From: an uncultured Candidatus Saccharibacteria bacterium
Lineage (GTDB): Bacteria > Patescibacteriota > Minisyncoccia > UBA6257 > 02-FULL-45-10c
Length of the DNA stretch: 64,000 nt
Assembly (NCBI GenBank): GCA_964355085.1
Contig: CAYHBW010000001.1
Coordinates: forward strand, 4,693-68,692
Direction: 5' to 3'
The notes under the pieces were generated by a model. That model had not been told where the DNA came from, searched no databases, and saw only the letters and a list, made by a program, of their open reading frames with translations. Made by a program: the position numbers and the translations under genes. Below, piece by piece: positions 13,160 to 56,763 of this stretch. Position 1 is the first letter of the stretch, and every line of letters begins with the position of its first letter.

Positions 13160-13270
13160 ATCTTTTTATTTTTTTTAAATTATTATTGATAATAAACGAC
13201 CGACTTTTTAAGTCTTATTTAGTATGGGTCATACGGACGGGAAAAGCAAAAACGATCCTGTTGATAACTA

Positions 13271-15499: not shown

Positions 15500-15524
15500 T
15501 GAACCCGGAGAATTTGAAATGGTC

Positions 15525-30905: not shown

Positions 30906-32042
30906 TTACTCTCCCATGAGATCTTCCCAAACAATCGGGCTTCTGGCCTTAATCTTGTTTTTGACTTTTTTCCCGATAATCAATTCCGCATGACCAGTAT
31001 CAATACCGCCGGACGGCCGCAGCGAAATCAGCATATCTTCCGTCAACACGGCGCCCTTTGAAATATCCCTTGAGGCATATAGCGACCGCCTGACCCAGCG
31101 ATCAAAAATTTCGTCTCCTTCATGACCAGGATAGGAAACCGGCTGTTTGATCCCGGAACCGGACAACGCCTCTTCCGTCATCCGAATTTCTGCGACCATA
31201 CGCTTGAAATCCGCCGGCTCCGTTGAATTCGGATCATCGTGGCTTCCGCCGGCCTGCGAATCGGTAAAATGCTTTTCAATCGCGACAGCACCCAAAGCAA
31301 CGGCTGCCAACGGAGCCGCAAGATGCGGCGGCTTGGAATGATCCGAATAACCGACCGGCAGATGGAATGCATTGCGGAGAGTTTCGATTGCGCGCAGGTT
31401 CAAGTCAGAAAAACTGCGCGGTGGATACATGGATACGCAATGGAGCAAAACAATATCGTCATTGCCTTCCTGCTGTATAACCCGGACCGCATGCGCGACT
31501 TCTTCCAAATAAGCCATGCCGGTGGAAAGAATGATGGGCTTCCCCTGCTTTGCGATATACCGAAGCAATAAGTCATCGGTCATTTCATATGAAGCGATCT
31601 TAAAAGCCGGAACTTTCGATTTCATCAGGACATCCACCGCCTCTTTGTCAAAAGGAGTAGAAAGGAACATGATGCCCTTCTTTTTCGCATATTCAACCAA
31701 TCGTCCCGTCCATTCGTAAGGCAGTTCGGATGACCCGTAAAATTCGGAAAGAGTTTTCCAGCTTTTCTTTCCATTCCAGGAAATATCTATAGGGGTATCA
31801 GCGGCGATTTTATCGTGCTTGAGATGCTGGAATTTCACAGCGTCTGCGCCGGATTCCGCCGCAATATCAATAAACCGGAGCGCGTTTTTCAGATCGCCTT
31901 TATGATTCGCGCCGACTTCAGCGATGATAAAAACCGGCTGGCCTGCGCCGATTGTTTTATTCCCTATCCTTACCGAATTTACCGGCTGATATGTTAGATT
32001 TTCAGGCAATTTTTTGAAATAACCGTCTCTTTCTTTCCCCAT
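30906..32042 (-). CDS. neuB: N-acetylneuraminate-synthase-family nonulosonic acid synthase (NeuB/PseI/LegI) with C-terminal SAF domain
   Basis: IGNKTIGAGQPVFIIAEVGANHKGDLKNALRFIDIAAESGADAVKFQ is the canonical NeuB N-terminus. A C-terminal antifreeze-like/SAF domain is present. Confidence 0.85.
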   Translation of the reverse strand: MGKERDGYFKKLPENLTYQPVNSVRIGNKTIGAGQPVFIIAEVGANHKGDLKNALRFIDIAAESGADAVKFQHLKHDKIAADTPIDISWNGKKSWKTLSEFYGSSELPYEWTGRLVEYAKKKGIMFLSTPFDKEAVDVLMKSKVPAFKIASYEMTDDLLLRYIAKQGKPIILSTGMAYLEEVAHAVRVIQQEGNDDIVLLHCVSMYPPRSFSDLNLRAIETLRNAFHLPVGYSDHSKPPHLAAPLAAVALGAVAIEKHFTDSQAGGSHDDPNSTEPADFKRMVAEIRMTEEALSGSGIKQPVSYPGHEGDEIFDRWVRRSLYASRDISKGAVLTEDMLISLRPSGGIDTGHAELIIGKKVKNKIKARSPIVWEDLMGE

Positions 32043-32055
32043 AATTTAAATTTAT

Positions 32056-33192
32056 TTAACTGATCAAAATATTTTTAATTTCCTTTATGACGGTTTCCTG
32101 GTCCGATCCGCTCAACCCGGGATAGATAGGAATTGAAATCTCTGAAAGATAGAAATCTTCGGCGACCGGACAGATTCCTTTTTTATATCCCAGCTCCTGA
32201 TAATACGGATGCCAGTAGACGGGAATATAGTGAACTTGGACGCCTACTCCGGCTTTTTGTAATTTTTCAAAAACTTCACGGCGGCGCGACTGTAACTTCC
32301 CTGAAAGCCTGATCGGGTAAAGATGGCGGCTGGACTTCCTTCCTTCAAAATCCGCCGGCAAGACCAGATCCGGAAATCCGGAAAGTTCCTCGGAATAACG
32401 CTTTGCTAATTCATTTCTTGATTTTATGAATGTCGGAAGTTTCTTGAGCTGACTTATTCCGAGAGCCGCCTGCATGTCAGTCATCCGATAATTCAATCCA
32501 AGCTCCTGCATCTCGTGATACCACGGACCATGCGGATCGTTCTTAAAATCATTGGCGTCCTTTGTTATTCCGTGACTCCGGAATAACAGCAATTTTTTAT
32601 AAAAATTTTCGTTGTCAGTGAGAATCGCGCCGCCTTCGCCGGTGGTTATCGATTTCACCGGGTGGAAGCTAAAAGTCGTCATATCAGCGATGCTTCCGAC
32701 TTTCTTTCCGCCATATTCGGCACCGAGCGAATGTGCGGCGTCCTCGATCAGAATCAGATTATGTTTTTTTGCAATTGATTTTAAAATATCCAAATCACAT
32801 GGCAAGCCGGAATAATCGACAGCTACGATGGCTTTTGTCTTGCCAGTTATCTTTTCCTCGATCAAATGAGCGTCGATATTGCCCGTAGACCTCTCAACAT
32901 CGACGAAAACAGGCGTCGCCCCCTGCCAAATAGCCGCATTTGAAGTCGCAGCGAATGTGATCGGTGAAGTGATGATCTCATCTCCAGGACCGATTCCGGC
33001 GGCAAAATAGGCGGCCTGCAAAGCGGCTGTGCCGTTTGAAATGACGACGGCATATTTCGCTCCGCAATAATCAGCCAGCGCAGATTCGAATTCTTTTATT
33101 TTCGGGCCTTGGGTCATCCAATCAGACTCCAAAACCTCACGGACTGACCTCAAATCCTCCCCGTCAATTGATTGATGCGAATAAGGGATCAT
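32056..33192 (-). CDS. DegT-family aminotransferase, PseC/LegC-like (UDP-4-keto-6-deoxy-hexosamine transaminase)
   Basis: The MIPYSHQSIDGEDLRSVREVLESDWMTQGPKIKEFE...AVVISNGTAALQAA N-terminus is typical of PseC-type enzymes. The track ORF also shows FSFHPVKSITTGEGGAIL. Confidence 0.8.
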   Translation of the reverse strand: MIPYSHQSIDGEDLRSVREVLESDWMTQGPKIKEFESALADYCGAKYAVVISNGTAALQAAYFAAGIGPGDEIITSPITFAATSNAAIWQGATPVFVDVERSTGNIDAHLIEEKITGKTKAIVAVDYSGLPCDLDILKSIAKKHNLILIEDAAHSLGAEYGGKKVGSIADMTTFSFHPVKSITTGEGGAILTDNENFYKKLLLFRSHGITKDANDFKNDPHGPWYHEMQELGLNYRMTDMQAALGISQLKKLPTFIKSRNELAKRYSEELSGFPDLVLPADFEGRKSSRHLYPIRLSGKLQSRRREVFEKLQKAGVGVQVHYIPVYWHPYYQELGYKKGICPVAEDFYLSEISIPIYPGLSGSDQETVIKEIKNILIS

Positions 33193-33207
33193 CGTTTATT
33201 CCGGCCT

Positions 33208-34188
33208 TCAGCCGAGGATTTCTTTGGCTTTCCGCGGATTATTCAGAAAATCCCGGTGATTGCTGGCGTATTGGAATTGCTTTTTGACTGACGGCTTTTT
33301 ATTCAGCCAGCGCACGCTTCCGGATTCAGGATGGATGGCGAAAGCGCTCCCGATATCCTTGGCCCGGCGCGCTTCATGCTCGGTTATCAGCACTTCATGT
33401 AATTTTTCTCCCGGACGGATTCCGATGACTTCGACATCGCATTCCGGAGCCAGATATTTTATGACATCCGTAACTTTCAGGCTTTTCATCTTCGGCACGA
33501 AAAGCTCTCCGCCCTCCATGACGCCGACGGCGTCCAGAATTATATCCAGAACTTTATCTATGGAAATCCAGAAACGGGTCATCTCCTTGTCCGTCAACTT
33601 GATCACGCCTGTTTTTTTCTGATTATGAATAAGTTCGATCAGACTTCCGCGGCTTCCGATGACATTTCCATAACGCACGACGCTGAACTTGGTGCGTAAA
33701 TTATTTCCGACATATACATTGCCGGAAATAAACAATCTTTCCGCCGCAAGCTTGGTGGCGCCGTAAAGGTTTATCGGTTGAACCGCTTTGTCGGAAGAAA
33801 TAAGCATCACCTTGTCTATGTTCTTGTTCAAAGCCGCCTCAACGACATTCTGACTCCCTAAAATGTTCGTTTTGACAGCTTCCATCGGATTGAATTCAAT
33901 CGCCGGAACCTGCTTCAACGCCGCCGCATGGACGACGATATCCACTCCATCAAACGCCCTCTCCAAACGGGGCAAATCCCGGACATCGCCGATGAAAAAC
34001 CTCAATCGATCCTTATGATCGGCCAGATCTCTTTGCATTTCATACTGCTTGAATTCATCCCGGCTGAAAATTATGATTTTTTTGACCGCGCTTTCGCTTA
34101 AAAGTTTGGCAACAAAAGCCCGGCCGAAAGTCCCGGTGCCGCCGGTGACCAGAACCGTCTTGCCCTTGAGATAATTTAAGTTCGACAT
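33208..34188 (-). CDS. pseB: UDP-N-acetylglucosamine 4,6-dehydratase (inverting), PseB/FlaA1 family
   Basis: Aligns by eye nearly end-to-end with H. pylori FlaA1/PseB. Shared blocks: TVLVTGGTGTFG, KKIIIFSRDEFKQYEM, RFFIGDVRD, HAAALKQVP, KTNILGSQNV, INLYGATKL, FSVVRYGNVIGSRGS, MTRFWI, GGELFVPK, IGIRPGEKLHEV. Confidence 0.9.
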   Translation of the reverse strand: MSNLNYLKGKTVLVTGGTGTFGRAFVAKLLSESAVKKIIIFSRDEFKQYEMQRDLADHKDRLRFFIGDVRDLPRLERAFDGVDIVVHAAALKQVPAIEFNPMEAVKTNILGSQNVVEAALNKNIDKVMLISSDKAVQPINLYGATKLAAERLFISGNVYVGNNLRTKFSVVRYGNVIGSRGSLIELIHNQKKTGVIKLTDKEMTRFWISIDKVLDIILDAVGVMEGGELFVPKMKSLKVTDVIKYLAPECDVEVIGIRPGEKLHEVLITEHEARRAKDIGSAFAIHPESGSVRWLNKKPSVKKQFQYASNHRDFLNNPRKAKEILG

Positions 34189-34381: not shown

Positions 34382-34423
34382 ATGAAACTTTCCGATTATA
34401 TAATTGATTATATTACATTATGA
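34382..34423 (+). other. 13-codon upstream ORF (MKLSDYIIDYITL*) that duplicates the N-terminus of the downstream TPP-enzyme gene. Its TGA stop overlaps that gene's ATG (ATGA).
   Basis: atgaaactttccgattatataattgattatattacattatga is followed immediately, out of frame, by atgaaattatcagattatgttgctgattacatagcg (MKLSDYVADYIA...). Confidence 0.35.
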
Positions 34424-36228
34424 AATTATCAGATTATGTTGCTGATTACATAGCGAATTTAGGTACTAAAAAAGTCTTTTTAGTTACCGGCGGAGCATGC
34501 GTACATCTGGTCAATTCCATCAGCAAACATGAGAAACTTGGCTATGTCTGCATGCAACATGAGCAATCAGCGGCAATGGCGGCCGAGGCTTATTCCCGAG
34601 TCGGACCAGGAATCGGCGTCGCCGTGGCGACCAGCGGACCGGGTGCCACCAATTTCATAACCGGCATCTGCGGCGCCTGGTTTGATTCCATACCTACGCT
34701 ATTTATTACCGGAAATGTGAATATGCACGAGATGAAAGGCATGACAAAACTCCGTCAGGTCGGTTTTCAGGAAACTGATATTGTAAATATAGTTTCGTCC
34801 GTAACTAAATTTAGCCACACGGTGACTGATCCGGAAAAAATAAAATACTATCTCGATAAGGCGATCTTTATGGCAAATTCAGGAAGACCGGGTCCGGTAT
34901 TGCTGGATCTGCCGATGAATATCCAGCATGCGGAAATTGATCCTGAAAAACTTATCGGGTTTGTTCCTGATAAAAATACAGGGGATGAAAAGATCGGCGA
35001 TGAAAAAATGATAAAGAAAGCATTACAGTTGATCAAAAACGCCAGACGACCGGTAATTTTAGCCGGAGGAGGCATACGCATTTCCGAAGCCGCTGAAGAA
35101 TTCCGCGAATTTGTAAAATATCTGGGCTTCCCGGTAGTTTGCTCCTGGAGCGGAATTGATGTCCTGGGATATGATAATCCTCTCTTCATAGGACAAATCG
35201 GGGTTTATGGAAATCGCGGAGCAAATTTTCTGATTCAAAATGCGGACTTGGTAATTTCCATAGGGTCCCGCCTGGATACGCGACAAGTCAGCGGAAACGC
35301 AAAAAGTTTTGCACGCGCCGCAAAAAAAATTATAGTGGATATTGATGCGCAGCAACTGAAAGACGGCCGAGTACGTCCAGATATCGCAATTCATTCAGAT
35401 GTAAAGCAATTTTTACTGACAACCATGCCTCACCTCAAGAATTTAAAGAAGGAAGATATTGCCCCGTGGCTGACAAAAGCGCTCGAATGGAAAAGAAAAT
35501 ATCCGACCTGTCTTCCGGAGTACCGAAAGGAGAAGAAATTTGTTAACCCATATGTTTTTTTCAAGACCCTTTCCGAAGAACTCCGACCGGATGATATCAT
35601 CATTTCCGACATCGGAGGAGTTTTAGTCTGGGTTATGCAATCCCTCGAAATCAAAGAGGGGCAGAGATTATTCTCCTCAATGGGACATGCCGCGATGGGT
35701 TACGGCCTGCCGGCGGGAATCGGCGCCGCATTGGCTACAAAAAAATCCAGAATAATCTGCATTGTCGGCGACGGAGGAATGCAAATGAATATTCAGGAAT
35801 TGCAGACAATTTTTCATCATAAACTGCCTCTGAAGATTTTTATCGTCAATAATAATTGTTACGGGATAGTTCGCCAATACGAAGATTCGTATTTTAATGG
35901 CGAACATGAGGGTACTGTCCAGGACAGCGGGTACACAGCTCCTGATTTTGTCATGGTCGGAAAATCATACAAGATACCGTCATCACGCATTCTGAATCAT
36001 TCAAATATGCGATCTGAGATTCGAAGAGCTTTGGGAACAAAAGGCGCGGAAATAATCGATGTCATAGTGCGCGAAGATCAAAAATTAATCCCAAAACTTG
36101 AGGCAAAACGGATGAAAAACGGCCGCTACATCTCAAAGCCCATTGAGGATCAGTGGCCGTATCTTTCCAGAAAAGAGTTCACGGCCAATATGATAATTCC
36201 GCCAACCGATGAAATCGACGATGAATAA
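34420..36228 (+). CDS. thiamine-pyrophosphate-dependent acetolactate-synthase-like enzyme (YerE-like carboligase candidate)
   Basis: 602 aa with three-domain ALS/POX architecture: N-terminal Pyr domain (GGACVHLVNSI...EQSAAMAAEAY), central domain, and C-terminal TPP-binding GDGGMQMNIQEL...NNNCYG (GDG-x24-NN). Confidence 0.75.
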   Translation: MKLSDYVADYIANLGTKKVFLVTGGACVHLVNSISKHEKLGYVCMQHEQSAAMAAEAYSRVGPGIGVAVATSGPGATNFITGICGAWFDSIPTLFITGNVNMHEMKGMTKLRQVGFQETDIVNIVSSVTKFSHTVTDPEKIKYYLDKAIFMANSGRPGPVLLDLPMNIQHAEIDPEKLIGFVPDKNTGDEKIGDEKMIKKALQLIKNARRPVILAGGGIRISEAAEEFREFVKYLGFPVVCSWSGIDVLGYDNPLFIGQIGVYGNRGANFLIQNADLVISIGSRLDTRQVSGNAKSFARAAKKIIVDIDAQQLKDGRVRPDIAIHSDVKQFLLTTMPHLKNLKKEDIAPWLTKALEWKRKYPTCLPEYRKEKKFVNPYVFFKTLSEELRPDDIIISDIGGVLVWVMQSLEIKEGQRLFSSMGHAAMGYGLPAGIGAALATKKSRIICIVGDGGMQMNIQELQTIFHHKLPLKIFIVNNNCYGIVRQYEDSYFNGEHEGTVQDSGYTAPDFVMVGKSYKIPSSRILNHSNMRSEIRRALGTKGAEIIDVIVREDQKLIPKLEAKRMKNGRYISKPIEDQWPYLSRKEFTANMIIPPTDEIDDE

Positions 36229-37180
36229 TATATCTCAAATAATTGATGAAATGGATGGACCGATACTTATAACCGGCGCCAGCGGATTTATCGGCGCTAA
36301 TTTGGCTAGAAAAATTGCAAAGACGCGCGACGATGTTCATATAATAGTCAGGAACGGATCGAATCTCCGGCGCATTGAAGACATGCTTCCGCAAATCACG
36401 GTGCATCGCGCGGATCTTTCCGACCGCAATGATATCTTTCTGAAGATCGGAGAGATTCAGCCGAAAACAATTTTTCATGCGGCCGCTTATGGCGTCCACT
36501 CATTTCAAAATGAAACTGAAAAAATTGAGACTGCAAACCTCCACGGCACGATTAACTTATTGGATGCCTGCGTCAAATCCGGTTTCAAGATTTTTATCAA
36601 TACCGGATCTTCTTCAGAGTACGGCACAAAAAATAAGCCGATGAAAGAAACCGATCTTCTGACGCCTAACAGCGACTACGCGGTCTTTAAAGCGGCGGCG
36701 ACCCTTTACTGCCAGCACCTAGCGAGATCAAAAAAGATTCCGATCATAACGTTAAGGCCATTTTCGGTTTATGGCCAATTTGAAGAATCGACTAAATTGA
36801 TTCCGACGCTGATTAGATCATTTCTCGACGGCACATGTCCCCCGCTAGTGTCTCCTGATACGGCCAGAGACTACATTTTTATTGATGACTTAGTTGATGC
36901 CTATCTTATTGCCAGTCAAAAACCAGAATTAGGCGGAGAAATATTTAATGTCGGAAGCGGCAAGCAGACTACGCTGAAAGAAATAGTTGACTTATCAATC
37001 CGTTTGACTGGAGCTGCCGTTGAACCGGAATGGGGAACAATGAGTCCAAGGATCTGGGATCATAACATGTGGCAGGCGGACATATCAAAAATAAAATCAA
37101 TTCTAGATTGGTCGCCAAAAACTGATCTGAAGGAAGGACTGGCCAGGACAATTGACTGGATAGAATCCGACGGTAATTAA
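36209..37180 (+). CDS. NAD-dependent epimerase/dehydratase (extended SDR) acting on nucleotide sugars
   Basis: ILITGASGFIGANLARKI (GxxGxxG), catalytic YAVFKAA (YxxxK) and an S-x-x-Y pattern. 323 aa. Confidence 0.75.
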   Translation: MKSTMNNISQIIDEMDGPILITGASGFIGANLARKIAKTRDDVHIIVRNGSNLRRIEDMLPQITVHRADLSDRNDIFLKIGEIQPKTIFHAAAYGVHSFQNETEKIETANLHGTINLLDACVKSGFKIFINTGSSSEYGTKNKPMKETDLLTPNSDYAVFKAAATLYCQHLARSKKIPIITLRPFSVYGQFEESTKLIPTLIRSFLDGTCPPLVSPDTARDYIFIDDLVDAYLIASQKPELGGEIFNVGSGKQTTLKEIVDLSIRLTGAAVEPEWGTMSPRIWDHNMWQADISKIKSILDWSPKTDLKEGLARTIDWIESDGN

Positions 37181-37234: not shown

Positions 37235-37260
37235 AAAAATCTTAAAACCATAAGATTTTT
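37235..37260. terminator. weak AT-rich bidirectional hairpin between convergent genes
   Basis: aaaaatctta aaacca taagattttt is a 10-bp stem followed by a T-run. It overlaps the stop of the minus-strand gene at 37242. Confidence 0.35.
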
Positions 37261-37994
37261 TTGATCGCGCTTCTTATTTTTTCCAGAAATAAAAACTTGC
37301 GACTTTTATGAGTGTAAGTATACTCATCCCCTATCTCGCTGCCGAAAAACATCTTAAATTGCGCGACATTCGATTTTTGCGCAGTGGAATAATTGACTGA
37401 ACCCAGTCCGACATATTCATAATCGTTCTCTTTCCCATATTTACAGATTTCAAAAATCAGCCGCCTGGTCGCGGAACCGATGATCTTATACAGATCCTTG
37501 TTATCATCTCCGATGCTTAATCTTTTGGAAAATATGGCTCTCACCTGCAGATATGGATATAAATCATAACAAGGAACGGCGACAATCAGCTCCCCCTTAT
37601 AATAAGCATTGAAATTCATCAAGCCAGCGAGACTTTCTCGGCTCCATGGCTTACGTCCCTGCGCCAGCTCAAAGTCTCTATAAAGCGCGTAAGTGCCGTG
37701 AAAATCCGTATCGCCCACTGTAAATTTCAATTCAGTAATCTTGAAAGTTTTCATTATTTCCTGCTGCGTCCTTCGGGCAAACTTTGCGGTTATTTCCTCT
37801 AGGGATCCATTCAATCTTATATTCGCCAATTTTTTTTTGATCAGACCGAATCCTTGTTTCTCCAAGCCGAGATCCCGGTATGAGATTACCGTCATATAAT
37901 CGTATTTAGTTTTATCCAATAGTTCTCCTAAGTCCTCGTTCTGATGCAGAACCCTAATCGAATTAAGAAAAAATTTTCTTTTTTTATAGATCAT
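37242..37994 (-). CDS. hypothetical protein, possibly a GNAT-fold (FemAB/Acetyltransf_6-like) acyltransferase
   Basis: 250 aa with no strong motif. Overlaps by 4 nt the stop of the upstream GT4-MT fusion gene. Confidence 0.3.
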   Translation of the reverse strand: MIYKKRKFFLNSIRVLHQNEDLGELLDKTKYDYMTVISYRDLGLEKQGFGLIKKKLANIRLNGSLEEITAKFARRTQQEIMKTFKITELKFTVGDTDFHGTYALYRDFELAQGRKPWSRESLAGLMNFNAYYKGELIVAVPCYDLYPYLQVRAIFSKRLSIGDDNKDLYKIIGSATRRLIFEICKYGKENDYEYVGLGSVNYSTAQKSNVAQFKMFFGSEIGDEYTYTHKSRKFLFLEKIRSAIKKILWF

Positions 37995-39832
37995 TTTTGC
38001 GCTATATAAATAGGAAATTTATCAAGAAAAGCCAGGAGAAAATCCGGCGCATTCAGAATCCTCCGGCTATTTCCGATCATGCGGATATTCCTGAATCCTG
38101 CCGCTGAAAGGCCGCGCTTCTCGCTCCAGACATTATTATAATACTGCATAAGCTGCCCGAATTCATATTCCTCCTTCCGCCAATGGGCGCCCAACCTTAA
38201 TCTGACTAAATTGTTCAATAAAATCTTCCAGCCGGTCGGCGTCCTCGGCACAGCCAAAGAATTATGACTGGAGTAAATGAAAAATCCTCCCGGCCGGAGA
38301 ACTCTTTTTATTTCGCTCATCGCCCTCCTTCTCTCGGATAAAGAGGCCAAATTATCTATGCCGTTAAATGAAAAAAATACCGCGTCAAACGAGCCGTCTT
38401 TGAAGCCCAGTTTTCTCGCATCCATGACCCGGAAATCGATTCCCGGAAAATTCTTCCTCGCCTGGTCGACAAGCGGACCGGAGATATCCACGCCGACCAC
38501 GTCGCAGCCCTTCTCATGTATGAAGGTGGTCGTCCGGCCGGCGCCGCAGCCGAGATCCAGGATATCGGAGCCGGACGGCATATATTCCCTGATGACATGC
38601 TCTTCCCCGGCCCGCAGATATTTTTTAGAATACTCCCTGACCGATGACGGGGAAGAGAATGATTCGATGTTCATGCGCTCGATATCATCCGATTTTGACG
38701 CTCCGCCGAAAAAATCCGCAATCTTTCCAGCTCGTTTCCGCCATGTATGCTCATGCGCGTCATTCAGTGCCTGATCGGATATATTTTTTGAAAAATTTCC
38801 GTCGCCGATAACCTTCAAAATCGCCCTGCCGAGCTCATCCGAGCTCCCGGGAGAAACAAGGACTGAATTGAAAGAATTAAGGATTTCTTTCAGAGAAGGC
38901 AATGCCGTGGAGATGATCGGTCTACCGGAAGCCATATACTCGAAAATCTTAAGCGGCGACATATAGAAACTGTAATGCTCGTTCTCCGGAAACGGGGCTA
39001 TCAGGACATCGAAGGATTTCAGATATTTCGGAATCAGGTCGTGCCTGACCATGCCGGTGAAAATTACGGCGTCTCCGATGCCGGAGCTCTTCGCGATGCT
39101 TCTGTAATGATCGATATCCTCCGGATGTCCGCCGACAAGAACAAGGACGATTTCTTTCTCCGCTTTTAATCCGGAGAACGCCTTGAGAGCGACATCTATT
39201 CCCTTTTCCATCCCGAGCGTCCTAAGCATGCCGACATATCCGACCAATTTTTTATCATGAGGAAGCCCGAGTTCCGTCCTTGCGTCTTCCTTGGAAACAT
39301 CAATATTGAATTTTTCAAGATTGACGGCGTCAGGCGCGACAATTATTTTCCCCGCGCTCACTCCGGATTTGACCATTCTTTCCTTTATGAACGAAGTGAG
39401 AACGACCACGGCATCCGCGTTCTTTAAAGCCCGCAGATAGAATCCTCCGTAATTCTTCGGCAGGGAATGTATCTCCAGGACAGCCATCCGAAAAAGAAGC
39501 CCGACCGAGGACTCACGCGAATAGATGAAATCGTATCTTTTGAAAAGAAGATACAGCCTGGCAACGGCCAGAAATGTCGCCAACTGGAGAAGAAATGTGA
39601 ATCTGTTGCCGCGCTGATGCAGAAAATCGATGCATGGCAGCTTGGTTATTTTGAACTTTCTTTCCACTCCGTAATAATCGAACGGATCCTGATCCGGACT
39701 GCCGGAACGCATCGGGGAAACCAATTCGACGTCAAAACCGCTTTCGGAAAAAGCGGCGCACATCTGCATTATCTGCAGACCATGCGCGGAACTCGCCGGA
39801 AGTTTTGAATTGGAGACATAGACCAGCTTCAT
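37991..39832 (-). CDS. bifunctional fusion: N-terminal GT4 glycosyltransferase (Glycos_transf_1) plus C-terminal class I SAM methyltransferase
   Basis: 613 aa. Residues 1 to about 380 carry GT4 features (VGYVGMLRTLGMEKGIDVALKAF, GRPIISTALPSLKEIL). Residues from about 400 to 613 form a SAM-MT (ILDLGCGAGRTTTFIHEKGCDVVGVDIS motif I, FDAVFFSF, LRPGGFFI). Confidence 0.75.
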   Translation of the reverse strand: MKLVYVSNSKLPASSAHGLQIMQMCAAFSESGFDVELVSPMRSGSPDQDPFDYYGVERKFKITKLPCIDFLHQRGNRFTFLLQLATFLAVARLYLLFKRYDFIYSRESSVGLLFRMAVLEIHSLPKNYGGFYLRALKNADAVVVLTSFIKERMVKSGVSAGKIIVAPDAVNLEKFNIDVSKEDARTELGLPHDKKLVGYVGMLRTLGMEKGIDVALKAFSGLKAEKEIVLVLVGGHPEDIDHYRSIAKSSGIGDAVIFTGMVRHDLIPKYLKSFDVLIAPFPENEHYSFYMSPLKIFEYMASGRPIISTALPSLKEILNSFNSVLVSPGSSDELGRAILKVIGDGNFSKNISDQALNDAHEHTWRKRAGKIADFFGGASKSDDIERMNIESFSSPSSVREYSKKYLRAGEEHVIREYMPSGSDILDLGCGAGRTTTFIHEKGCDVVGVDISGPLVDQARKNFPGIDFRVMDARKLGFKDGSFDAVFFSFNGIDNLASLSERRRAMSEIKRVLRPGGFFIYSSHNSLAVPRTPTGWKILLNNLVRLRLGAHWRKEEYEFGQLMQYYNNVWSEKRGLSAAGFRNIRMIGNSRRILNAPDFLLAFLDKFPIYIAQK

Positions 39833-39836
39833 TATT

Positions 39837-41600
39837 CTATTTAACTGTTTTAAAAATCAAATGGTTTTCAATTTCAACCGATAAGATAAGAAAATCTGAA
39901 GTTCTGAATTCATCCGAAAGATACCCGAATTCCGGATCATCCCTGTCCAAAAGGACATAATCCGCCCCATACTGCGCCAAAGATTTCTCAAACCCGAGAT
40001 TTCTGTAAAAATCCATCTTCCAAAAAACTCTGTCGATATATTCCTGCGGAATAAACTCCGGATCTTCCGACTGTTTGCCGCTTAAAATATCCAAAAGCTT
40101 ATTTCTGACAATCTGGTTCTGATATTTCTCTATGAATTTATTAGCCCAGATTTCAACATTGTGTTCTTTAATATATCCGGCATCGATGTTCTTCCTTAAA
40201 ATATTCTGTATCGCCCATCGGTTCTCAAGTTCGTCGTCCGAAATCATGTAGAGTCCGGAATTCGGATTATAGAAATCATTATTATGAGTGTATATCGGAA
40301 TGAGCTGGATATAATTACCGCCGAGCGAATAAACGACTGAATCCTTTTCCGAATTCGCATTCAGCCATTCCGAGACTCCGGAAAAATCCTGAACTCTGCG
40401 GAATTCCCCGATATCCAGGGGCTCCGCAAACGACAGGATTCCGGAGATGCTGTCTCTCTCCCGATAAGAAATTATTCCCATAACAGCGGTCATCAGGAGA
40501 ATCGCCGCAATCCGACGCGGCCTGATTCCGCCGGAAACATGCGCGACATTCAAAAACCCGGAACAAATCGCAAAAATAATAAATACGAACAGGACCACGA
40601 CCCAATAATAATGCATTGAGAAAGAGAATGCCTTGCCAGTAATGACATTCTGCCAGTTGAGGATTATTCCGCTGAACGCGAGAACAAAAGCGAACACTCC
40701 CCGCCTGCCCGTACCGATACCGGACATCAACAGAACCGCCAATGACAAGAACATAAGCGCGACATTAAAATACGCGTGCGGCCAATGAGTGGAAAGAAAG
40801 CCGAAACGCAGATTCTGATCCAGATAACTGACATCAGCCGCCGCCCTCTGCAGATTCAGGATATACGGAGCCGAAAATAGTCCGGCCGGAACGGCGAACG
40901 CCAGGAAATTTCCGGCATAATATCTGACTCCCTCGGTCCGCAGATAAGCGAGCGCCGCGGCAAACAGGCAATAAACCACAAGAATCGACGACCAGACGAA
41001 AGGATAGATATAAAAAGCGATTCCAAAATCAATTGCAAGGAGGATATTCAGCCGGACATATTCCTTCAAGCTCCTCGTTCCCTCTCCGAATATCTTCCAA
41101 ATCAAAAAAAGACCGAGAAAAAGAAATATGAAGCTGAATTGCGGATTTACCGGTCTATTGAACCAATAATTCAGCACGAAGTAATAACCGGAGGAAAAAA
41201 TCAAAGCCGCGGATCCGGAACCGGATACCGCAAATATCAGAAAATAAAGGGCTGTAACGCCGACGGCCGGCAATACGAAATCATTAAGCGCGAACAATGC
41301 CGGAATTGAAATACGGGAAATACGGGCCATCTCCGCCATGATTATCTCCGCCAGCGGCTGCTGAAGATATGGGGCGCCCTTATGCTCCTTGAGATAAACA
41401 CTGCCGAAATTATAATGTCCGTCGTATGCTTCACGGGTCATCGAAAGATACTGGTCTTCATCATTGTTGAACATCGGATAAATTCCCTTGAAATCAGGGT
41501 TTATCTGCCGGATTGCGGAAACTGTCGGAGCGACGATCAACAAACCTACGGCGAAAGCGGCCGGAATAATCCTCCAATGCGTTCTGAATATGGACATCAT
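39837..41600 (-). CDS. polytopic integral membrane protein of unknown function (possible glycan polymerase or GT-C-like)
   Basis: 587 aa with at least 10 predicted TM helices and an approximately 190-aa C-terminal soluble domain. No family recognised. Confidence 0.4.
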   Translation of the reverse strand: MMSIFRTHWRIIPAAFAVGLLIVAPTVSAIRQINPDFKGIYPMFNNDEDQYLSMTREAYDGHYNFGSVYLKEHKGAPYLQQPLAEIIMAEMARISRISIPALFALNDFVLPAVGVTALYFLIFAVSGSGSAALIFSSGYYFVLNYWFNRPVNPQFSFIFLFLGLFLIWKIFGEGTRSLKEYVRLNILLAIDFGIAFYIYPFVWSSILVVYCLFAAALAYLRTEGVRYYAGNFLAFAVPAGLFSAPYILNLQRAAADVSYLDQNLRFGFLSTHWPHAYFNVALMFLSLAVLLMSGIGTGRRGVFAFVLAFSGIILNWQNVITGKAFSFSMHYYWVVVLFVFIIFAICSGFLNVAHVSGGIRPRRIAAILLMTAVMGIISYRERDSISGILSFAEPLDIGEFRRVQDFSGVSEWLNANSEKDSVVYSLGGNYIQLIPIYTHNNDFYNPNSGLYMISDDELENRWAIQNILRKNIDAGYIKEHNVEIWANKFIEKYQNQIVRNKLLDILSGKQSEDPEFIPQEYIDRVFWKMDFYRNLGFEKSLAQYGADYVLLDRDDPEFGYLSDEFRTSDFLILSVEIENHLIFKTVK

Positions 41601-41604
41601 GGAC

Positions 41605-42348
41605 TTATTTTAACAGAAAAACCCGCCTCCGTAACCAAAGATAGGAATTGCTCAATTTAAGCGTAAATTTGAACAGAGAGGTATCGGAATATATGTCGAT
41701 CCGATTATCCGGAATACGAGCCCCTTTGCTCCGTAAAAAAGACTTCACCTTTTCATTCTTAGCGCCTTTCGGGAAAACAAATATATTGGGAAATCCGTTA
41801 TTTTTGAAATTATTCCTTATGAAATTCGAGGTTACCTCGTATTCATAAAGGACATCCGCCTCGGCCAGCTCTGACAATTGCCTGTGCGAATGGCCGTGAT
41901 TTGCGATTGCAACGCCGCCGGCTTCGAGCGCATGCAAATCGGAAAGCGAGCATATCTCCCTTTCCCTATCGATCGGACGCGTTGAAAATTCCGCCTTTTT
42001 CCCGATCAGACCGTCATTTATGAAAATAGTCGCCGGAAATCCATGACTCCGTAAAACAGGCAGGGCGTTCCGATAAACGTCTCTAAATGCATCGTCAAAG
42101 GTTATCAGAACCGACTTCCCGGCAGATGGGATCTTACCGGATTCGATATCCAGAAAATCCCGCAACGTCAGAACTTTTATGCGTCTGGATTTCAGAAAAT
42201 CCATCTGCCTTCGGAATTCCTCCGTACGCACGGAAATAGGGGTCTCGCCGTCGGAGACGGAATGATATGTAAGTACGACTGGATAACGGAAAAACATGGC
42301 GTCTATTCCGGATAAAATCTGATTGATTGATTTTAAGAAATAGATCAT
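41605..42348 (-). CDS. polysaccharide deacetylase (NodB homology, CE4)
   Basis: LTYHSVSD...ITFDDAFRDVYRNALPVLRSHGFPATIFI...ANHGHSHRQLSEL gives the NodB motifs (TFDD, H-x-x-H). Confidence 0.8.
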   Translation of the reverse strand: MIYFLKSINQILSGIDAMFFRYPVVLTYHSVSDGETPISVRTEEFRRQMDFLKSRRIKVLTLRDFLDIESGKIPSAGKSVLITFDDAFRDVYRNALPVLRSHGFPATIFINDGLIGKKAEFSTRPIDREREICSLSDLHALEAGGVAIANHGHSHRQLSELAEADVLYEYEVTSNFIRNNFKNNGFPNIFVFPKGAKNEKVKSFLRSKGARIPDNRIDIYSDTSLFKFTLKLSNSYLWLRRRVFLLK

Positions 42349-42470
42349 TTGTTTAGGCAGCTGATTTTATTGAAAAATGAAACAATAAATCGCTTGCATT
42401 AGTTACATTATTGCATGAAAACAAGTTCGCACAAAAGATAACGGACGAGAAAATAAATTAAAATAAGAAA

Positions 42471-43508
42471 ATGAAAAAAATTCTTAGCATCGTCATTCCA
42501 ACCTATAACAGGGTCAACTTTCTAAAAACGAATGTCGAATTATTAATCAATCAGATTAAAACCGCAAAGCTTGAAAATATTGTTGAAGTGATAATCTCGA
42601 ATGACGCGTCGAAAGATGAGACAGCCGATTTCATAAATCATATAAACAAATCGTATGATTTCCTTCGCGGATTCAATCATATAAAAAATAAAGGCTTTTC
42701 GAAAAACGTCGAATTTCTAATTAGTAAATCAGTCGGAGAATATGTATTGATTTGCGGAGATGACGACCTGATTATCGATAAAGCCATCACCCGCATACTC
42801 GATAAGATAAAGAAAAAAAAGCCGAATTTCATATTGATCAACACATCGAATATAATATCAATCGATGACGCTAATAAAAATATCCGAACCGTTTCAGAAA
42901 ACCGATTAAATATCGACAAAGATATATTTGTTGAAGATTTTAAAAAAGATTCCAAAATTCTTGATTCGGCGAGGAACTGGCTTTATCTTACTAACTTCAT
43001 AACAGCAAATGTATTTAAAAAGGATATTTTTATATCCAAGGAAATTGATGCGAGAAAATTCGTGCGGAAAGAAAACGCATATGCATTCCAAGCCCCAATA
43101 ATCATCGGGATTGCCACTCTTGGGAGATTCCTGATAATTTCGGACTGCCTCGTTCTGCATCGCAAGACTGAGCCGAATTGGACGGCGGATTACCAGGGGA
43201 TTTTCGTCATAGACATACTTGATAGCACGGAGATATCCAAATTAATAAAAAATTATATTCCAAATGAATATAAAAAATATAAAAAACTCTACGCGGCCTT
43301 CATTCTTGATGATTTCATACTTGAAATTAAAAGGCGGAAGGATAAATTGAGCATACGAAAGTTCGCCTCGATAGCATTTTATAAAAATATAGACTGCTTT
43401 CCGGAAAATATTAAATTTTTACTTGTAGCGATCGCACCGAAAATTTCCGCATACATAGCAACAAAAATTCGGGCGAATAGGATTAAATCAAGTGGAAAAA
43501 CCTTCTAG
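42471..43508 (+). CDS. GT2 family glycosyltransferase (GT-A fold)
   Basis: LSIVIPTYNRVNFL...ISNDASKDET...ICGDDDLI has the GT2 N-terminal motifs and a DxD. Confidence 0.75.
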   Translation: MKKILSIVIPTYNRVNFLKTNVELLINQIKTAKLENIVEVIISNDASKDETADFINHINKSYDFLRGFNHIKNKGFSKNVEFLISKSVGEYVLICGDDDLIIDKAITRILDKIKKKKPNFILINTSNIISIDDANKNIRTVSENRLNIDKDIFVEDFKKDSKILDSARNWLYLTNFITANVFKKDIFISKEIDARKFVRKENAYAFQAPIIIGIATLGRFLIISDCLVLHRKTEPNWTADYQGIFVIDILDSTEISKLIKNYIPNEYKKYKKLYAAFILDDFILEIKRRKDKLSIRKFASIAFYKNIDCFPENIKFLLVAIAPKISAYIATKIRANRIKSSGKTF

Positions 43509-43581
43509 TATGAAATTTGCTAGGTTCGCACGTTTTTGTTAATATAATCAAAATAATTCACATATAAATTAACAACAAATT

Positions 43582-44811
43582 ATGAAAATGGAAAACAAGA
43601 GAAGGGTCTTGTATGCCGAAGCTGTTTATGGCCAATCAGAAATTGACGCAGTCGTTAAAGTTCTTAAAAATCCTAAAAAGATCGGCGCCGGAGAATTAGT
43701 TGGGGAATTCGAGAATAAAATATCTCGACTATTCGGAAAGAAATATGGCGTTATGGTCAATTCGGGATCCTCCGCCAATCTTATCGCCTTGGAAGCCCTT
43801 AATCTTCCAAGAGGTTCCGAGATAATAACTCCTATCCTCACATTCGGAACAACGTTGAGCCCCATAATCCAAAAAGGGCTGATTCCTGTATTTGTTGACG
43901 TAAAACCAGGAACATACATAATAGATCCGGATAAAATTGAGCCCATGATAACGAAGAAGACAAGGGCCCTGATGATTCCGTCCTTGATGGGAAATATTCC
44001 GGACCTGATTAAGCTCAAAAAAATAGCCGACAAATACGATCTCTGGATAATTGAAGACTCCTGCGACACGCTTGGTGCAAAATTCGCCGGAAAACCGACC
44101 GGTCAATATACGGACATATCAGTCACAAGTTTCTACGCGTCACACATCATAACAGCCGCCGGAGGAGGAGGGATGGCCTGCTTTAATGATAAAAATATGG
44201 CCAGGAGAGCCCGGGTGATATCGAGCTGGGGAAGAGAATCGACCAATTTCGGATTTCACGAAAAGTCCGAGAATCTGGATAAAAGATTCTCCGGAAGAAT
44301 TGAAGGTCGTGTCTACGATGCCAAATTCATCTTCAGTGAGGTCGGATATAATTTCCAGGTTCCTGAAATGTTCGGCGCCTTCGGACTTGAGCAACTTAAA
44401 AAATTTCCGAAGTTCGCGCAACGACGCAAGAAAAATTTTAAGGAAATGCTTTCGTTTTTCAAAAAATATGATAGATATTTCATTTTGCCGAAACAAACAG
44501 ATAAATCAGAAACAAATTGGCTTGCATTTCCTTTAACGATTAAGCCGGGTGCGGGTTTTTCCAGACATGAAATAACAAAATATCTTGAAGAAAACGGAAT
44601 ACAGACAAGACCGGTGTTCACCGGAAATGCGCTAAAGCAGCCGGCTTTCAAAAATCTGATAAGAGGGGGGGCAAGAAAAATGAGCTGTCCAGTGGCAGAC
44701 GATGTGACCCTGAATGGATTTGTGATCGGTTGCCATCACGGGCTCAAAAAGCCTGATACTTCCTACGTCAAAAGAAAATTCGAGCAATTCCTCGGCGAAT
44801 ATGCCGAATAA
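43582..44811 (+). CDS. DegT-family PLP/PMP enzyme, RfbH/DdhC (E1 dehydrase)-like
   Basis: 409 aa. The N-terminus VLYAEAVYGQSEIDAVVKVLKNPKKIGAGELVGEFENKI...VNSGSSANLIALEAL resembles RfbH-type CDP-6-deoxy-4-keto-hexose 3-dehydrases. Also SFYASHIITAAGGGGMA. Confidence 0.6.
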   Translation: MKMENKRRVLYAEAVYGQSEIDAVVKVLKNPKKIGAGELVGEFENKISRLFGKKYGVMVNSGSSANLIALEALNLPRGSEIITPILTFGTTLSPIIQKGLIPVFVDVKPGTYIIDPDKIEPMITKKTRALMIPSLMGNIPDLIKLKKIADKYDLWIIEDSCDTLGAKFAGKPTGQYTDISVTSFYASHIITAAGGGGMACFNDKNMARRARVISSWGRESTNFGFHEKSENLDKRFSGRIEGRVYDAKFIFSEVGYNFQVPEMFGAFGLEQLKKFPKFAQRRKKNFKEMLSFFKKYDRYFILPKQTDKSETNWLAFPLTIKPGAGFSRHEITKYLEENGIQTRPVFTGNALKQPAFKNLIRGGARKMSCPVADDVTLNGFVIGCHHGLKKPDTSYVKRKFEQFLGEYAE

Positions 44812-45503: not shown

Positions 45504-47009
45504 ATGAAAGGTTGCATAGTTCTACAAAGGCGCTTCGCCCCAATCGGGCATGCAATCGCGTTGGAACTTAAAAATAAATATGAAGTAAATGAGTTCTGCG
45601 GTTATGTGATTGCCAGGAATGCGGAGTATTTTGCAAAATCCAGAAAAGACATAGTTTATACAGACCTTCTGATGGATGAGGACCTGCGTAACCGATCTAA
45701 AAACGAAAAGCTAGACATCGAATACCTAAAAAGGATTGAATCCGAATATGGCTTCCCAAATCTTTGGCCGTTTATAGCCATAGACAGAACTCTCATGATG
45801 GATATCCCAAGAAAAGAATATTCCATCTCCCCTGCTCCGCCATATACCCATGAAGAAATGCTTAAAATCCTGCAAATCAAATTCCGGGAAATAATAAAAT
45901 TTCTTAAAAAAGAAAGGCCCGATTTCATAATCGGTGTAAATGTCGGTTCAATCGGCGCAATGATTCTTTATTATGTCGCAAAAAAAGAAGGAATTAAATT
46001 TTATACTGCTGAAAATGCAAAAATCGGCAATCGTATAACTTTCAGCGACGATTATAAGACATTATCCGGAATGGAAAATATATTTACTGACATCCGGAAA
46101 CGAAATTACGAAAGCCCGAACCGCAAAGAGGCGGAAAGATTTTTGAAAAGATTCCGGGATAATCCGGAGCCTCCCGCCTTTGCAATTGAAGAAAAAGAAA
46201 ATGGCCGGTGGGAAAAAATCGCCTCATTGCCTTTAAAATTTTTGAGATCTTTGTCTTTCACTATAAAATCTGTAATCCTATATGCGAAAAACCCGCGCAA
46301 AGAAGACATGACGACAGAAAATCCATTTTTTCTTTTCAGAAATAAGCTTATAAGAAAAATACGGGGATTAAGGAATCTCCAGGCCCTTTATGACGCAGTG
46401 GACCTGAAAGAGGATTTTGCTTATTTCCCATTGCACTTTGAGCCGGAAATCACCACTCTGCTCTATGCCCCATTTTACACCGACCAGATCAATCTTATCC
46501 GGCAAATCGCAAAATCCTTGCCAATACATTTCAAAATATACGTTAAAGAGCATCCTTCAATGCTCGAATATCGCCCAACTGAATATTATCGGGAACTTAA
46601 GAAAATTCCTAATTTGAAGCTGATAAATCCCAAACAGAGCTCGCTGGACCTGATTAAAAATTCAAAAATGATCGTTACGATTTCCGGAACTGCGGGGTTC
46701 GAAGCATCACTTCTCAAGAAGCCCGTCATCACTTTCGGTGACATATTTTATAACTGCCTTTCATTCGTGAAAAAATGCGGACCCATCGAAGAACTGCCGA
46801 ATCTTGTGAAAAAACAATTGGAAAATTTCCAATATGACGAAAAAGAAATGGTTGATTTCCTTTCCGCGCTTTTCGAAGACACGACTGCGCTTGATCTTTC
46901 CAATGCCTGGGGAAGCGGAGATGGAAATCAATTGGAAGCCATGGTGAAACAACCGGAATTCCATAAATTTGTGGCTTCCCTGGCGCATAAACTTAATCTG
47001 AAAAATTAA
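45504..47009 (+). CDS. capsule polysaccharide biosynthesis protein, KpsS/KpsC/LpsZ-like (Capsule_synth family; Kdo / nonulosonic-acid transferase candidate)
   Basis: 501 aa. The C-terminal block KEHPSMLEY...MIVTISGTAGFEASLLKKPVITFGDIFYN matches the conserved HP...SSvG(f/l)EAll.gkPV...G..fY core of KpsS/KpsC-type transferases. Confidence 0.45.
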   Translation: MKGCIVLQRRFAPIGHAIALELKNKYEVNEFCGYVIARNAEYFAKSRKDIVYTDLLMDEDLRNRSKNEKLDIEYLKRIESEYGFPNLWPFIAIDRTLMMDIPRKEYSISPAPPYTHEEMLKILQIKFREIIKFLKKERPDFIIGVNVGSIGAMILYYVAKKEGIKFYTAENAKIGNRITFSDDYKTLSGMENIFTDIRKRNYESPNRKEAERFLKRFRDNPEPPAFAIEEKENGRWEKIASLPLKFLRSLSFTIKSVILYAKNPRKEDMTTENPFFLFRNKLIRKIRGLRNLQALYDAVDLKEDFAYFPLHFEPEITTLLYAPFYTDQINLIRQIAKSLPIHFKIYVKEHPSMLEYRPTEYYRELKKIPNLKLINPKQSSLDLIKNSKMIVTISGTAGFEASLLKKPVITFGDIFYNCLSFVKKCGPIEELPNLVKKQLENFQYDEKEMVDFLSALFEDTTALDLSNAWGSGDGNQLEAMVKQPEFHKFVASLAHKLNLKN

Positions 47010-56720: not shown

Positions 56721-56763
56721 TCATAGATTATATCAAAAAAATAAGTTATATTACAATGACATT

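Follow-up and report, generated by a model that had tools for sequence, protein, structure and literature searches.

In a 64,000-nucleotide stretch of DNA from an uncultured Candidatus Saccharibacteria bacterium (contig CAYHBW010000001.1 of assembly GCA_964355085.1, positions 4,693 to 68,692; hereafter the window), four co-directional minus-strand genes at 37242-42348 form, as judged from gene fusions and conserved gene order, one conserved and coherent cassette. We propose that this Patescibacteria cassette tailors a single hexosamine carried by a membrane-lipid-linked intermediate, on the cytoplasmic side of the membrane, and that an extracytoplasmic glycosyltransferase of the GT-C fold would then act with the tailored hexosamine-lipid (HexN-lipid) as its acceptor. 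To this reading, which draws on both sequence comparison and structure models, we assign a probability of about 0.4. One element of it is advanced more tentatively still: that a de-N-acetylated hexosamine on a lipid-linked surface glycan or glycolipid is aminoacylated in a tRNA-dependent manner, and that this step is coupled, by fusion in some lineages, to a Gtr-derived GT-C family. Precedent exists for each step, but not for the combination. The locus had been described in a first-pass annotation as a module for adding, methylating, deacetylating and exporting or polymerizing a sugar unit. One conserved add-methylate-deacetylate sub-module is indeed present, whereas the export or polymerization step gives way to a GT-C enzyme, and the module would be better described as one that adds a sugar, de-N-acetylates it, re-acylates it with an amino acid, methylates it and completes a GT-C transfer outside the cell.

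All four open reading frames (ORFs) of the proposed operon are present as annotated. In the order of transcription, they encode a CE4 (NodB-fold) de-N-acetylase of 247 amino acids that is predicted to be cytoplasmic (41605..42348, minus strand; PF01522); a 587-amino acid membrane protein of GT-C fold and unnamed family, assigned by fold and topology (39837..41600, minus strand); a 613-amino acid fusion of a GT4 glycosyltransferase to a methyltransferase, here GT4::MT (37991..39832, minus strand; Pfam); and a 250-amino acid Fem/MprF/Sbb17-like (double-GNAT-derived) transferase, predicted from its fold and a motif to be an aminoacyl-tRNA-dependent N-aminoacyltransferase (37242..37994, minus strand). 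The last of these had been placed upstream of the others, but the order given was that of the plus strand; the gene is last in transcription and thus downstream. Successive genes are separated by 4 nt and 4 nt and then joined by a 4-nt ATGA overlap, so that the four genes are probably translationally coupled. Between the CE4 gene and a divergent GT2 gene lies a 122-bp AT-rich intergenic region (42349..42470, no strand assigned), which from a reading of the sequence we presume to be the promoter region of the operon; scans for consensus promoters and terminators found such sites to be no more numerous than in shuffled sequence.

The 587-amino acid protein had been recognized as polytopic, with ten or more transmembrane (TM) helices, and as lacking a recognizable sequence family. 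We found the same: it has 11 TM helices and matches no Pfam or NCBIfam family at E ≤ 0.1. By its structure model, however, it is a GT-C fold glycosyltransferase. The polytopic membrane core superposes on solved GT-C enzymes, with fold-comparison figures of 17.2 for STT3B, 17.0 for Pmt4, 16.5 for AftA, 16.3 for Pmt2, 15.5 for AglB, 15.1 for ArnT, 14.1 for DPY19, 13.8 for PglB, 12.8 for GPI-MT-I and 10.5 for PimE. The modeled topology has the N terminus inside, the C terminus outside and an extracytoplasmic C-terminal domain of about 205 residues, and Lys and Arg residues cluster at the cytoplasmic helix ends. The arrangement is that of a GT-C enzyme: a cytoplasmic N terminus, TM1 (residues 11-33) and a long first external loop (EL1, residues 34-98, two helices) that carries a conserved acidic residue. 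Among 40 family members, all conserved polar residues lie on the outer face, including D47 (39/40), E48 (34/40), R265 and H330 (each 40/40), as well as D107, R149, H272 and W316/Q317/N318.

At the level of sequence, no established GT-C family claims this protein. Models for PMT, PMT_2 and ArnT (GT39, GT83) gave no Pfam match at E ≤ 0.1, hhalign against E. coli ArnT returned an insignificant 9.6% probability, and against the two PMT_2 proteins of the window 0.3% and 0.1%, and the family profile retrieved nothing relevant from all PDB sequences. The EL1 motif D-E-x-x-Y...R-E (DE..Y....RE) aligns with PDETRYAEISRE of E. coli ArnT, and the Asp-Glu motif D47-E48-x-x-Y51 lines up with PDETRY of ArnT, a resemblance alone that does not make the protein a member of that family. 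The first-pass annotation had suggested a novel polymerase or transporter; neither sequence nor fold matched a Wzy/O-antigen polymerase or a Wzx, MATE or MurJ flippase, and the GT-C fold together with Gtr-type contexts in relatives points elsewhere.

Extending the search with a family profile to 1.84 billion cluster representatives yielded 2,582 members at E ≤ 1e-3, of which 1,007 also passed E ≤ 1e-30. Three distant members that we checked had no Pfam match either, and literature searches found no paper describing this Patescibacteria GT-C family or the cassette. Homologues with a named source were nearly all from Patescibacteria (Woesebacteria, Paceibacterota, Harrisonbacteria, Zambryskibacteria, Falkowbacteria and Parcubacteria), the exceptions being a few records labeled just "bacterium" and one bin labeled Gammaproteobacteria. 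We conclude from these comparisons that the GT-C family is large, unnamed, lineage-restricted and new. Its likely donor is indicated by relatives in which the GT-C is joined to parts of a Gtr system. In P0254, the GT-C has a GtrA/DPMS_TM domain (5.9e-20) fused to its N terminus; in P0246, the fusion partner is an N-terminal GT2 whose best matches are AglJ, PpgS, a dolichyl-phosphate (Dol-P)-hexose transferase and ArnC. Loci L028, L029 and L034 have the gene order GtrA, GtrB-like GT2, GT-C, and in L032 and L036 a GtrA homologue lies just upstream of the GT-C. Given these GtrA and GT2 fusions and Gtr-type neighborhoods, the family most likely draws on polyprenyl-monophosphate sugars as donors, in common with Gtr, Arn and PMT systems, rather than on oligosaccharides linked to a diphosphate.

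The same evidence bears on the idea that the 587-amino acid protein resembles an oligosaccharyltransferase and transfers a tailored, GT4-built oligosaccharide en bloc from polyprenyl diphosphate onto protein. A Wzx-type flippase does follow the cassette in L003, and the window encodes a PglC-like initiating transferase and Wzx, as such a route might have it. Yet the WWDxG signature of the STT3/PglB/AglB (GT66) enzymes, sought as WWD or W[WYF][DNE]xG, occurs in none of the 40 family members; the protein has 11 TM helices and not the 13 of GT66, with which it shares no sequence similarity; and the fusions to, and neighborhoods with, GtrA and DPM1/GtrB-like GT2 proteins point to monophosphate donors. 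Because the signature is absent and the Gtr-type links indicate monophosphate donors, we consider en bloc transfer extremely unlikely.

Pfam domain boundaries confirm that the 613-amino acid protein joins a complete GT4 to a complete class I S-adenosylmethionine (SAM)-dependent methyltransferase. The GT4 part, a retaining enzyme of GT-B fold, spans about residues 1-379 (38696..39832, minus strand), and both of its Rossmann halves exceed the gathering scores: Glyco_transf_4 at residues 21-174 (35.7 bits, cut-off 28.5) and Glycos_transf_1 at residues 181-355 (1e-21, 77.6 bits, cut-off 26.4), with Glyco_trans_1_4 at 86.3 bits (cut-off 27). No NCBIfam equivalog cut-off was reached by this domain; it matches the MshA and BshA models (3e-16 and 2e-13), both far below cut-off, as well as MshA structures. 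A conserved hydrophobic helix at residues 78-98 (Kyte-Doolittle (KD) score 1.78) would suit a membrane-bound acceptor. The methyltransferase part covers about residues 396-613 (37994..38647, minus strand) and scores above cut-off for Methyltransf_25, _11, _31, _12 and _23, the best being Methyltransf_25 (7.8e-23) and Methyltransf_11 (1.6e-22) at residues 424-519. Between the two parts, residues 380-395 (38648-38695, minus strand) form a linker or N-terminal extension that is conserved in the alignment of orthologues.

Searching other genomes, as the first-pass annotation had advised, recovered the same architecture in twelve independent clusters at 90% identity, drawn from NCBI, JGI, ENA and Logan assemblies; the proteins are 603-616 amino acids long and 60-72% identical. 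All twelve keep the SAM motif VLDLGCGAGR and the linker ENIxSFSSxxSVxEYSK, and every one adjoins an orthologue of the 587-amino acid membrane protein. On this conservation, the GT4::MT fusion is genuine, and the concern that a frameshift or an assembly artefact had joined two genes falls away. A reading in which the fusion is nevertheless such an artefact, or in which the membrane protein is a Wzy-type polymerase, a flippase or a MATE-type transporter, has as its sole support that membrane protein's lack of a sequence-family match; set against the twelve orthologues and the GT-C fold, we give it next to no credence. In more distant relatives, the GT4 is a separate protein of about 375 amino acids (50-56% identity) encoded beside GT-C orthologues. 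When an orthologue of the fused methyltransferase was sought in those loci, only generic class I similarity of about 30% was found; the fusion thus marks a single subclade. P0105 represents another, different type of GT4::MT fusion. In a further homologue of the GT4 domain, P0166 (NCBI, 550 amino acids), a PD-(D/E)XK nuclease domain (PF13366, 4e-30) sits between the Rossmann halves, an odd architecture that may reflect insertion of a mobile element.

The assignment of the first gene product as a NodB-type deacetylase holds for its fold but not for its implied location. Polysacc_deac_1 (PF01522) matches at 4.5e-20 and 72.3 bits (cut-off 23.1), and the TFDD/FFDD and H-G-x-S-H metal-binding and catalytic motifs of CE4 enzymes are conserved without exception across the 12 aligned orthologues. 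Among solved structures, IcaB and PgaB come closest, but equivalog scores fall far short (PgaB 63.6 against 321.9; IcaB 56.1 against 248; HfsH 4.3e-4 and 20 bits against 400), and BLASTP against E. coli ArnD detected no similarity. Neither a signal peptide nor a TM segment was found, the maximum 19-residue KD value being 1.05, and in P0007, P0010 and P0011 the CE4 domain is fused directly to TM1, at the cytoplasmic N terminus of the GT-C, with no TM helix between them. With no hydrophobic segment of its own, and with its domain joined in some relatives to the cytoplasmic end of the GT-C, the CE4 enzyme is predicted to act in the cytoplasm. A secreted or periplasmic deacetylase of the PgaB/IcaB/PgdA type was rejected on the same grounds (no export signal or anchor, fusion to the cytoplasmic end of the GT-C) and for its low equivalog scores.

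The 250-amino acid protein, previously called GNAT-like, is predicted from its fold to be an aminoacyl-tRNA transferase of the Fem/MprF/Sbb17 type and not an acetyl-coenzyme A (CoA) GNAT. No Pfam or NCBIfam model, FemAB (PF02388) and DUF2156 included, matches it above threshold. Its structure model is confident (pLDDT 93.2) and has the GNAT-derived fold of the Fem type. Foldseek placed first the Gly-tRNA-type peptide synthases Sbb17 and Sba18 (4e-13), which were solved with the amino-sugar compound streptothrisamine, and after them FemX and the C-terminal domains of MprF; aminoacyl-tRNA transferases ranked top in two independent fold searches. These alignments covered 188-191 residues at 11-16% identity, between a protein of 250 amino acids and structures of 286-335, and the family profile reaches Sbb17 at an E value of 0.35 only. 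Among 24 family sequences, 23 contain the motif F213-K214-x-x-F217-G218 (FKxxFG), which aligns with INRFKLGFGG of Sbb17 and whose lysine corresponds to the catalytic lysine of FemX (K305) and DhpH-C (K329); the role of this type of lysine has been described (PMC12945691). In 20 of the 24, the CoA pyrophosphate-binding motif Q/RxxGxG/A is absent.

From the fold, the FK motif and the missing CoA motif, we infer that aminoacyl-tRNA is the acyl donor. A plain acetyl-CoA GNAT was discarded for the same three features. There is a subtler possibility, in which the cassette works as we propose while the 250-amino acid protein takes an acyl-CoA or another activated acyl donor and re-acylates the sugar with a non-acetyl group. 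The Fem-like Caulobacter HfsK has only been proposed to acylate amines exposed by the CE4 enzyme HfsH (PMC5362036). With the CoA-binding motif gone from most of the family and the Fem-type motif in nearly all of it, we regard this possibility as distinctly unlikely.

A comparison of 36 loci showed how far the cassette is conserved. Identical copies of the 587-amino acid protein occur on short contigs from 0.1-μm-filtered Hainich groundwater metagenomes, and the four-gene set is kept in 11 other distinct loci from independent metagenomes. The clade of the window (GT-C identity at least 46%) always has CE4, GT-C, GT4::MT and the Fem-like gene, and in most cases a Capsule_synth-like gene and a divergent GT4 as well. 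In a middle clade (36-41% identity), the set consists of GT-C, GT4, CE4, the Fem-like gene and separate methyltransferases, with GT4, CE4 and Fem-like in that order and with overlapping ORFs; two of its loci (L003 and L005) add a PgfS/ArnC-like GT2 upstream, in the same operon as CE4 and GT-C (in L003 this GT2 scores 231 bits against PgfS), and their counterparts of the 250-amino acid protein are 33-35% identical to that of the window. Members of the distant clade (about 30% identity) place GtrA and/or a GtrB-like GT2 beside the GT-C and often add a GT4, in a triad of GT4, GtrB-like GT2 and GT-C, and have neither CE4 nor the Fem-like gene. Relatives also carry extra tailoring genes in or after the cassette: L003 (10908-12479 and 823-2232) and L004 encode B12-binding radical SAM enzymes, and in L007 the Fem-like gene is followed by one for a carbamoyltransferase (12989-14773). 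From gene content, the tailored unit thus seems to vary between lineages.

This comparison also speaks to the objection that the four genes are mere neighbors in a glycan island and share no substrate, the Fem-like enzyme acting, for example, on peptidoglycan precursors and the CE4 enzyme on another polymer. The island is larger than 50 kb and rich in glycosyltransferases and methyltransferases, with a second Fem-like gene among them, and proximity alone is therefore weak evidence. What ties the parts to one another are the Rosetta-stone fusions, GT4::MT in 12 clusters and of a second kind in P0105, and CE4::GT-C. In addition, the cassette stays intact while its flanks change, its ORFs overlap or lie 4 nt apart, and the Fem-like gene tracks CE4, occurring at each of 11 distinct CE4-bearing loci and at 0 of 19 loci without CE4 (contig ends truncate some of these 19, and one, L024, has a weak CE4-like match only). 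Separate substrates are thus, in our estimation, very unlikely.

In the pathway that we favor, the GT4 domain would transfer an N-acetylhexosamine (HexNAc) from a nucleotide sugar to a lipid-linked acceptor, either a polyprenyl-(di)phosphate-linked glycan or a glycolipid. The CE4 enzyme, whose class and cytoplasmic location come from the data, would then remove the N-acetyl group from this presumed substrate. Next, the Fem-like enzyme would acylate the freed amine, its presumed acceptor, with an amino acid taken from aminoacyl-tRNA, its presumed donor, and the methyltransferase domain fused to GT4 would methylate the unit. After flipping, the 587-amino acid GT-C would act on the outer face with a polyprenyl-monophosphate sugar, a donor class suggested by the GtrA and DPM1-like GT2 fusions and the Gtr-type neighborhoods of relatives. 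The GT-C would thereby extend the tailored HexN-lipid, and its donor would come from a DPM1/GtrB-like GT2 encoded elsewhere. We prefer this acceptor-side arrangement because it gives a role to the always-adjacent GT4 and to the fused methyltransferase, because of the GT4-CE4-Fem order in the middle clade and the GT4, GtrB and GT-C triad at distant loci, and because the window clade keeps GT4 without a GtrB-like GT2 nearby.

The deacetylase could instead serve the donor side, much as in the Arn and Lgm systems. A GT2 or GT4 would load HexNAc onto polyprenyl phosphate; CE4, the Fem-like enzyme and the methyltransferase would tailor it there; and, once flipped, the monosaccharide would be transferred by the GT-C to a surface acceptor, perhaps a protein, wall polymer or lipid. 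L003 and L005 hold the full set of GT2, deacylase and GT-C known from Arn and Lgm (PMC12690121, PMC4993483), the GT-C of some relatives carries a fused CE4 in the place where P0246 has a DPM1-like GT2, and ArnD is likewise a cytoplasmic-face deformylase acting on an undecaprenyl-phosphate-linked sugar (PMC12690121). On the other hand, the seven loci of the window clade have no GtrB-like GT2 near the cassette, the CE4 enzyme has no detectable similarity to E. coli ArnD, and the always-adjacent GT4 and the fused methyltransferase would have no role in the cassette unless the retaining GT4 itself loads polyprenyl phosphate. We know of no precedent for a retaining GT4 doing so. On balance, donor-side tailoring strikes us as unlikely, though a credible competitor.

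Our preferred arrangement, with the tailored HexN-lipid as the acceptor, has several observations weighing against it. The window contains no GtrA, TM-bearing GtrB-like GT2 or paralogous GT-C, the sole match being a DPM1-like GT2 of 231 amino acids, and donor supply must therefore be assumed; three short DPM1-like GT2s lie 13-18 kb from the cassette. Because no donor-loading GT2 or flippase is found within the cassette, it may not be self-contained. In the CE4::GT-C fusions, CE4 occupies the same N-terminal position as GT2 in the GT2::GT-C fusion, which fits a donor-side CE4 at least equally well, and CE4 enzymes can also act as O-deacetylases. The 250-amino acid protein is about 85 residues shorter than FemX and is recognized by no sequence hidden Markov model; it is therefore Fem-like by fold and motif, not a proven family member. 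Finally, for Fem-like proteins encoded in exopolysaccharide (EPS) loci, HfsK among them, no donor has been established (PMC5362036).

Known systems supply the individual steps. Gtr systems consist of the flippase GtrA, a polyprenyl-phosphate-sugar synthase (GtrB/CsbB/PgfS) and a GT-C such as GtrC or YfhO; distant members of the new family share the GtrA-GtrB-GT-C order, whereas the window clade has lost the adjacent GtrA and GtrB and has CE4, GT4::MT and the Fem-like gene instead, and its GT-C matches no known GT-C sequence family. The lipid A aminosugar pathways Arn (ArnC/ArnD/ArnT) and Bordetella Lgm (LgmA/LgmC/LgmB) resemble the cassette in having a GT2-loaded polyprenyl-phosphate sugar, cytoplasmic-face de-N-acylation by a polysaccharide-deacetylase-type enzyme and a GT-C outside (PMC12690121, PMC4993483). 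They differ in having no GT4, methyltransferase or Fem-like step; moreover, the CE4 enzyme of the cassette is not ArnD-like, and its GT-C reaches no more than the 9.6% hhalign probability to ArnT. Patescibacteria are not known to make lipid A.

The assembly of glycosylphosphatidylinositol (GPI), phosphatidylinositol mannosides (PIM) and lipid-linked oligosaccharides (LLO) follows a logic in which a GT4, a de-N-acetylase and an acyltransferase work inside and a GT-C outside. The GPI and PIM enzymes are PIG-A and PimA as GT4s, PIG-L as the de-N-acetylase, PIG-W and PatA as acyltransferases, and PIG-M and PimE as GT-C enzymes with a donor made by DPM1 or Ppm1. In the cassette, by contrast, the de-N-acetylase is a CE4 enzyme and not of the LmbE/PIG-L type, the acyl step is Fem-like (aminoacyl) and falls on an amine and not a hydroxyl, and there is no homology beyond fold and class. 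Mycothiol and bacillithiol synthesis has a chemical order identical to the one proposed here: a GT4 (MshA, BshA) adds N-acetylglucosamine (GlcNAc), a deacetylase (MshB, BshB) removes the acetyl group, and an amino acid, Cys, is ligated onto the amine of glucosamine, with MshD as a GNAT. The products of these pathways are soluble thiols, made with no membrane step or GT-C, and the deacetylase and ligase belong to other families.

For the pairing of CE4 with a Fem-like enzyme, the nearest precedent is the Caulobacter holdfast, with the cytosolic CE4 enzyme HfsH and the Fem-like GNAT HfsK. Holdfast synthesis follows a Wzx/Wzy route that involves no GT-C, HfsK is under cyclic di-GMP control and its acylation is proposed only, and the HfsH and HfsK sequences are not orthologous to the cassette proteins; homologues of HfsK are associated with several EPS loci (PMC5362036). 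Structurally, the 250-amino acid protein is closest to Sbb17/Sba18/Orf11 (Gly-tRNA-dependent, acting on the amino sugar of streptothrisamine), FemX/FemA and the C-terminal domain of MprF. Orf11 aminoacylates the amine of an amino sugar (PMC12945691). The cassette differs from all of these in its context, which is that of a surface glycan and not of antibiotic, peptidoglycan or phospholipid synthesis.

Beyond the cassette, the 64-kb window is one large glycan island. It holds PseB, PseC, NeuB, several GT4, GT2 and methyltransferase genes and two PMT_2 GT-C enzymes, together with a PglC-like initiating transferase, Wzx, a Wzy_C-TPR protein and an ABC exporter. A recurrent neighbor of the cassette is the 501-amino acid Capsule_synth-like, "surface carbohydrate biosynthesis" protein at 45504..47009 (plus strand; PF05159 at 2.9e-8, TIGR04396 at 1.6e-7), orthologues of which (46-79% identity) flank the cassette in L006, L007, L008, L011 and L012. 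In these five loci, the slot between the two is filled by a divergently transcribed GT4 of 386-391 amino acids, whereas the window has a 345-amino acid GT2 and an RfbH-like gene there (42471-44811, plus strand), indicating a local gene replacement. A pathway for a nonulosonic acid of the pseudaminic acid type lies at 30906-34188 and 18418-19110 (both minus strand), with PseB (409.5 bits) and PseC (502.7 bits) above cut-off, NeuB and a CMP-sugar cytidylyltransferase. At 34420-37180 and 43582-44811 (both plus strand), an acetolactate-synthase-like thiamine diphosphate (ThDP) enzyme is followed by a short-chain dehydrogenase/reductase (SDR) of dehydratase/epimerase type, with an RfbH-like pyridoxal phosphate (PLP) enzyme nearby, a set that we take to resemble YerE-type synthesis of branched-chain or dideoxy sugars.

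The second Fem-like protein (17321-18418; TIGR04421 at 4e-20, PF02388 weak) belongs to a minus-strand group at 13271-18418 and adjoins the ABC exporter (15525-17324) and the 742-amino acid Wzy_C and TPR protein (13271-15499); with two such genes, tRNA-dependent or Fem-type tailoring may occur twice in the island. At 56686-58419 (plus strand), a 577-amino acid protein with about 10 hydrophobic segments stands beside two short DPM1/AglJ-like GT2 genes (56025-56720 and 55260-56015). Pfam gives no match for it and BLAST no similarity to the 587-amino acid GT-C; it may be another unclassified GT-C or a polymerase. The left end of the window is occupied by a very long ORF of 1,580 amino acids (531-5273, minus strand).

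Patescibacteria are ultra-small and mostly uncultured, and the envelope through which they attach to host cells is of barely known chemistry. The GT-C family that the cassette brings to light is large (2,582 representatives at the 50% level) and has lacked a Pfam or NCBIfam annotation, and its fusions (CE4::GT-C, GT2::GT-C and GtrA::GT-C) show how a Gtr-type system can be rewired. The predicted product of the cassette is an N-aminoacyl, methylated hexosamine on a lipid-linked intermediate, which would link aminoacyl-tRNA, a substrate of translation, to the tailoring of a surface glycan. If our proposal is true, many "hypothetical membrane proteins" of candidate-phyla genomes could be re-annotated, and an aminoacyl-tRNA-dependent step would be added to glycan biosynthesis, as a third kind of tRNA-dependent envelope modification beside the peptidoglycan bridges made by Fem enzymes and the lipid aminoacylation carried out by MprF.

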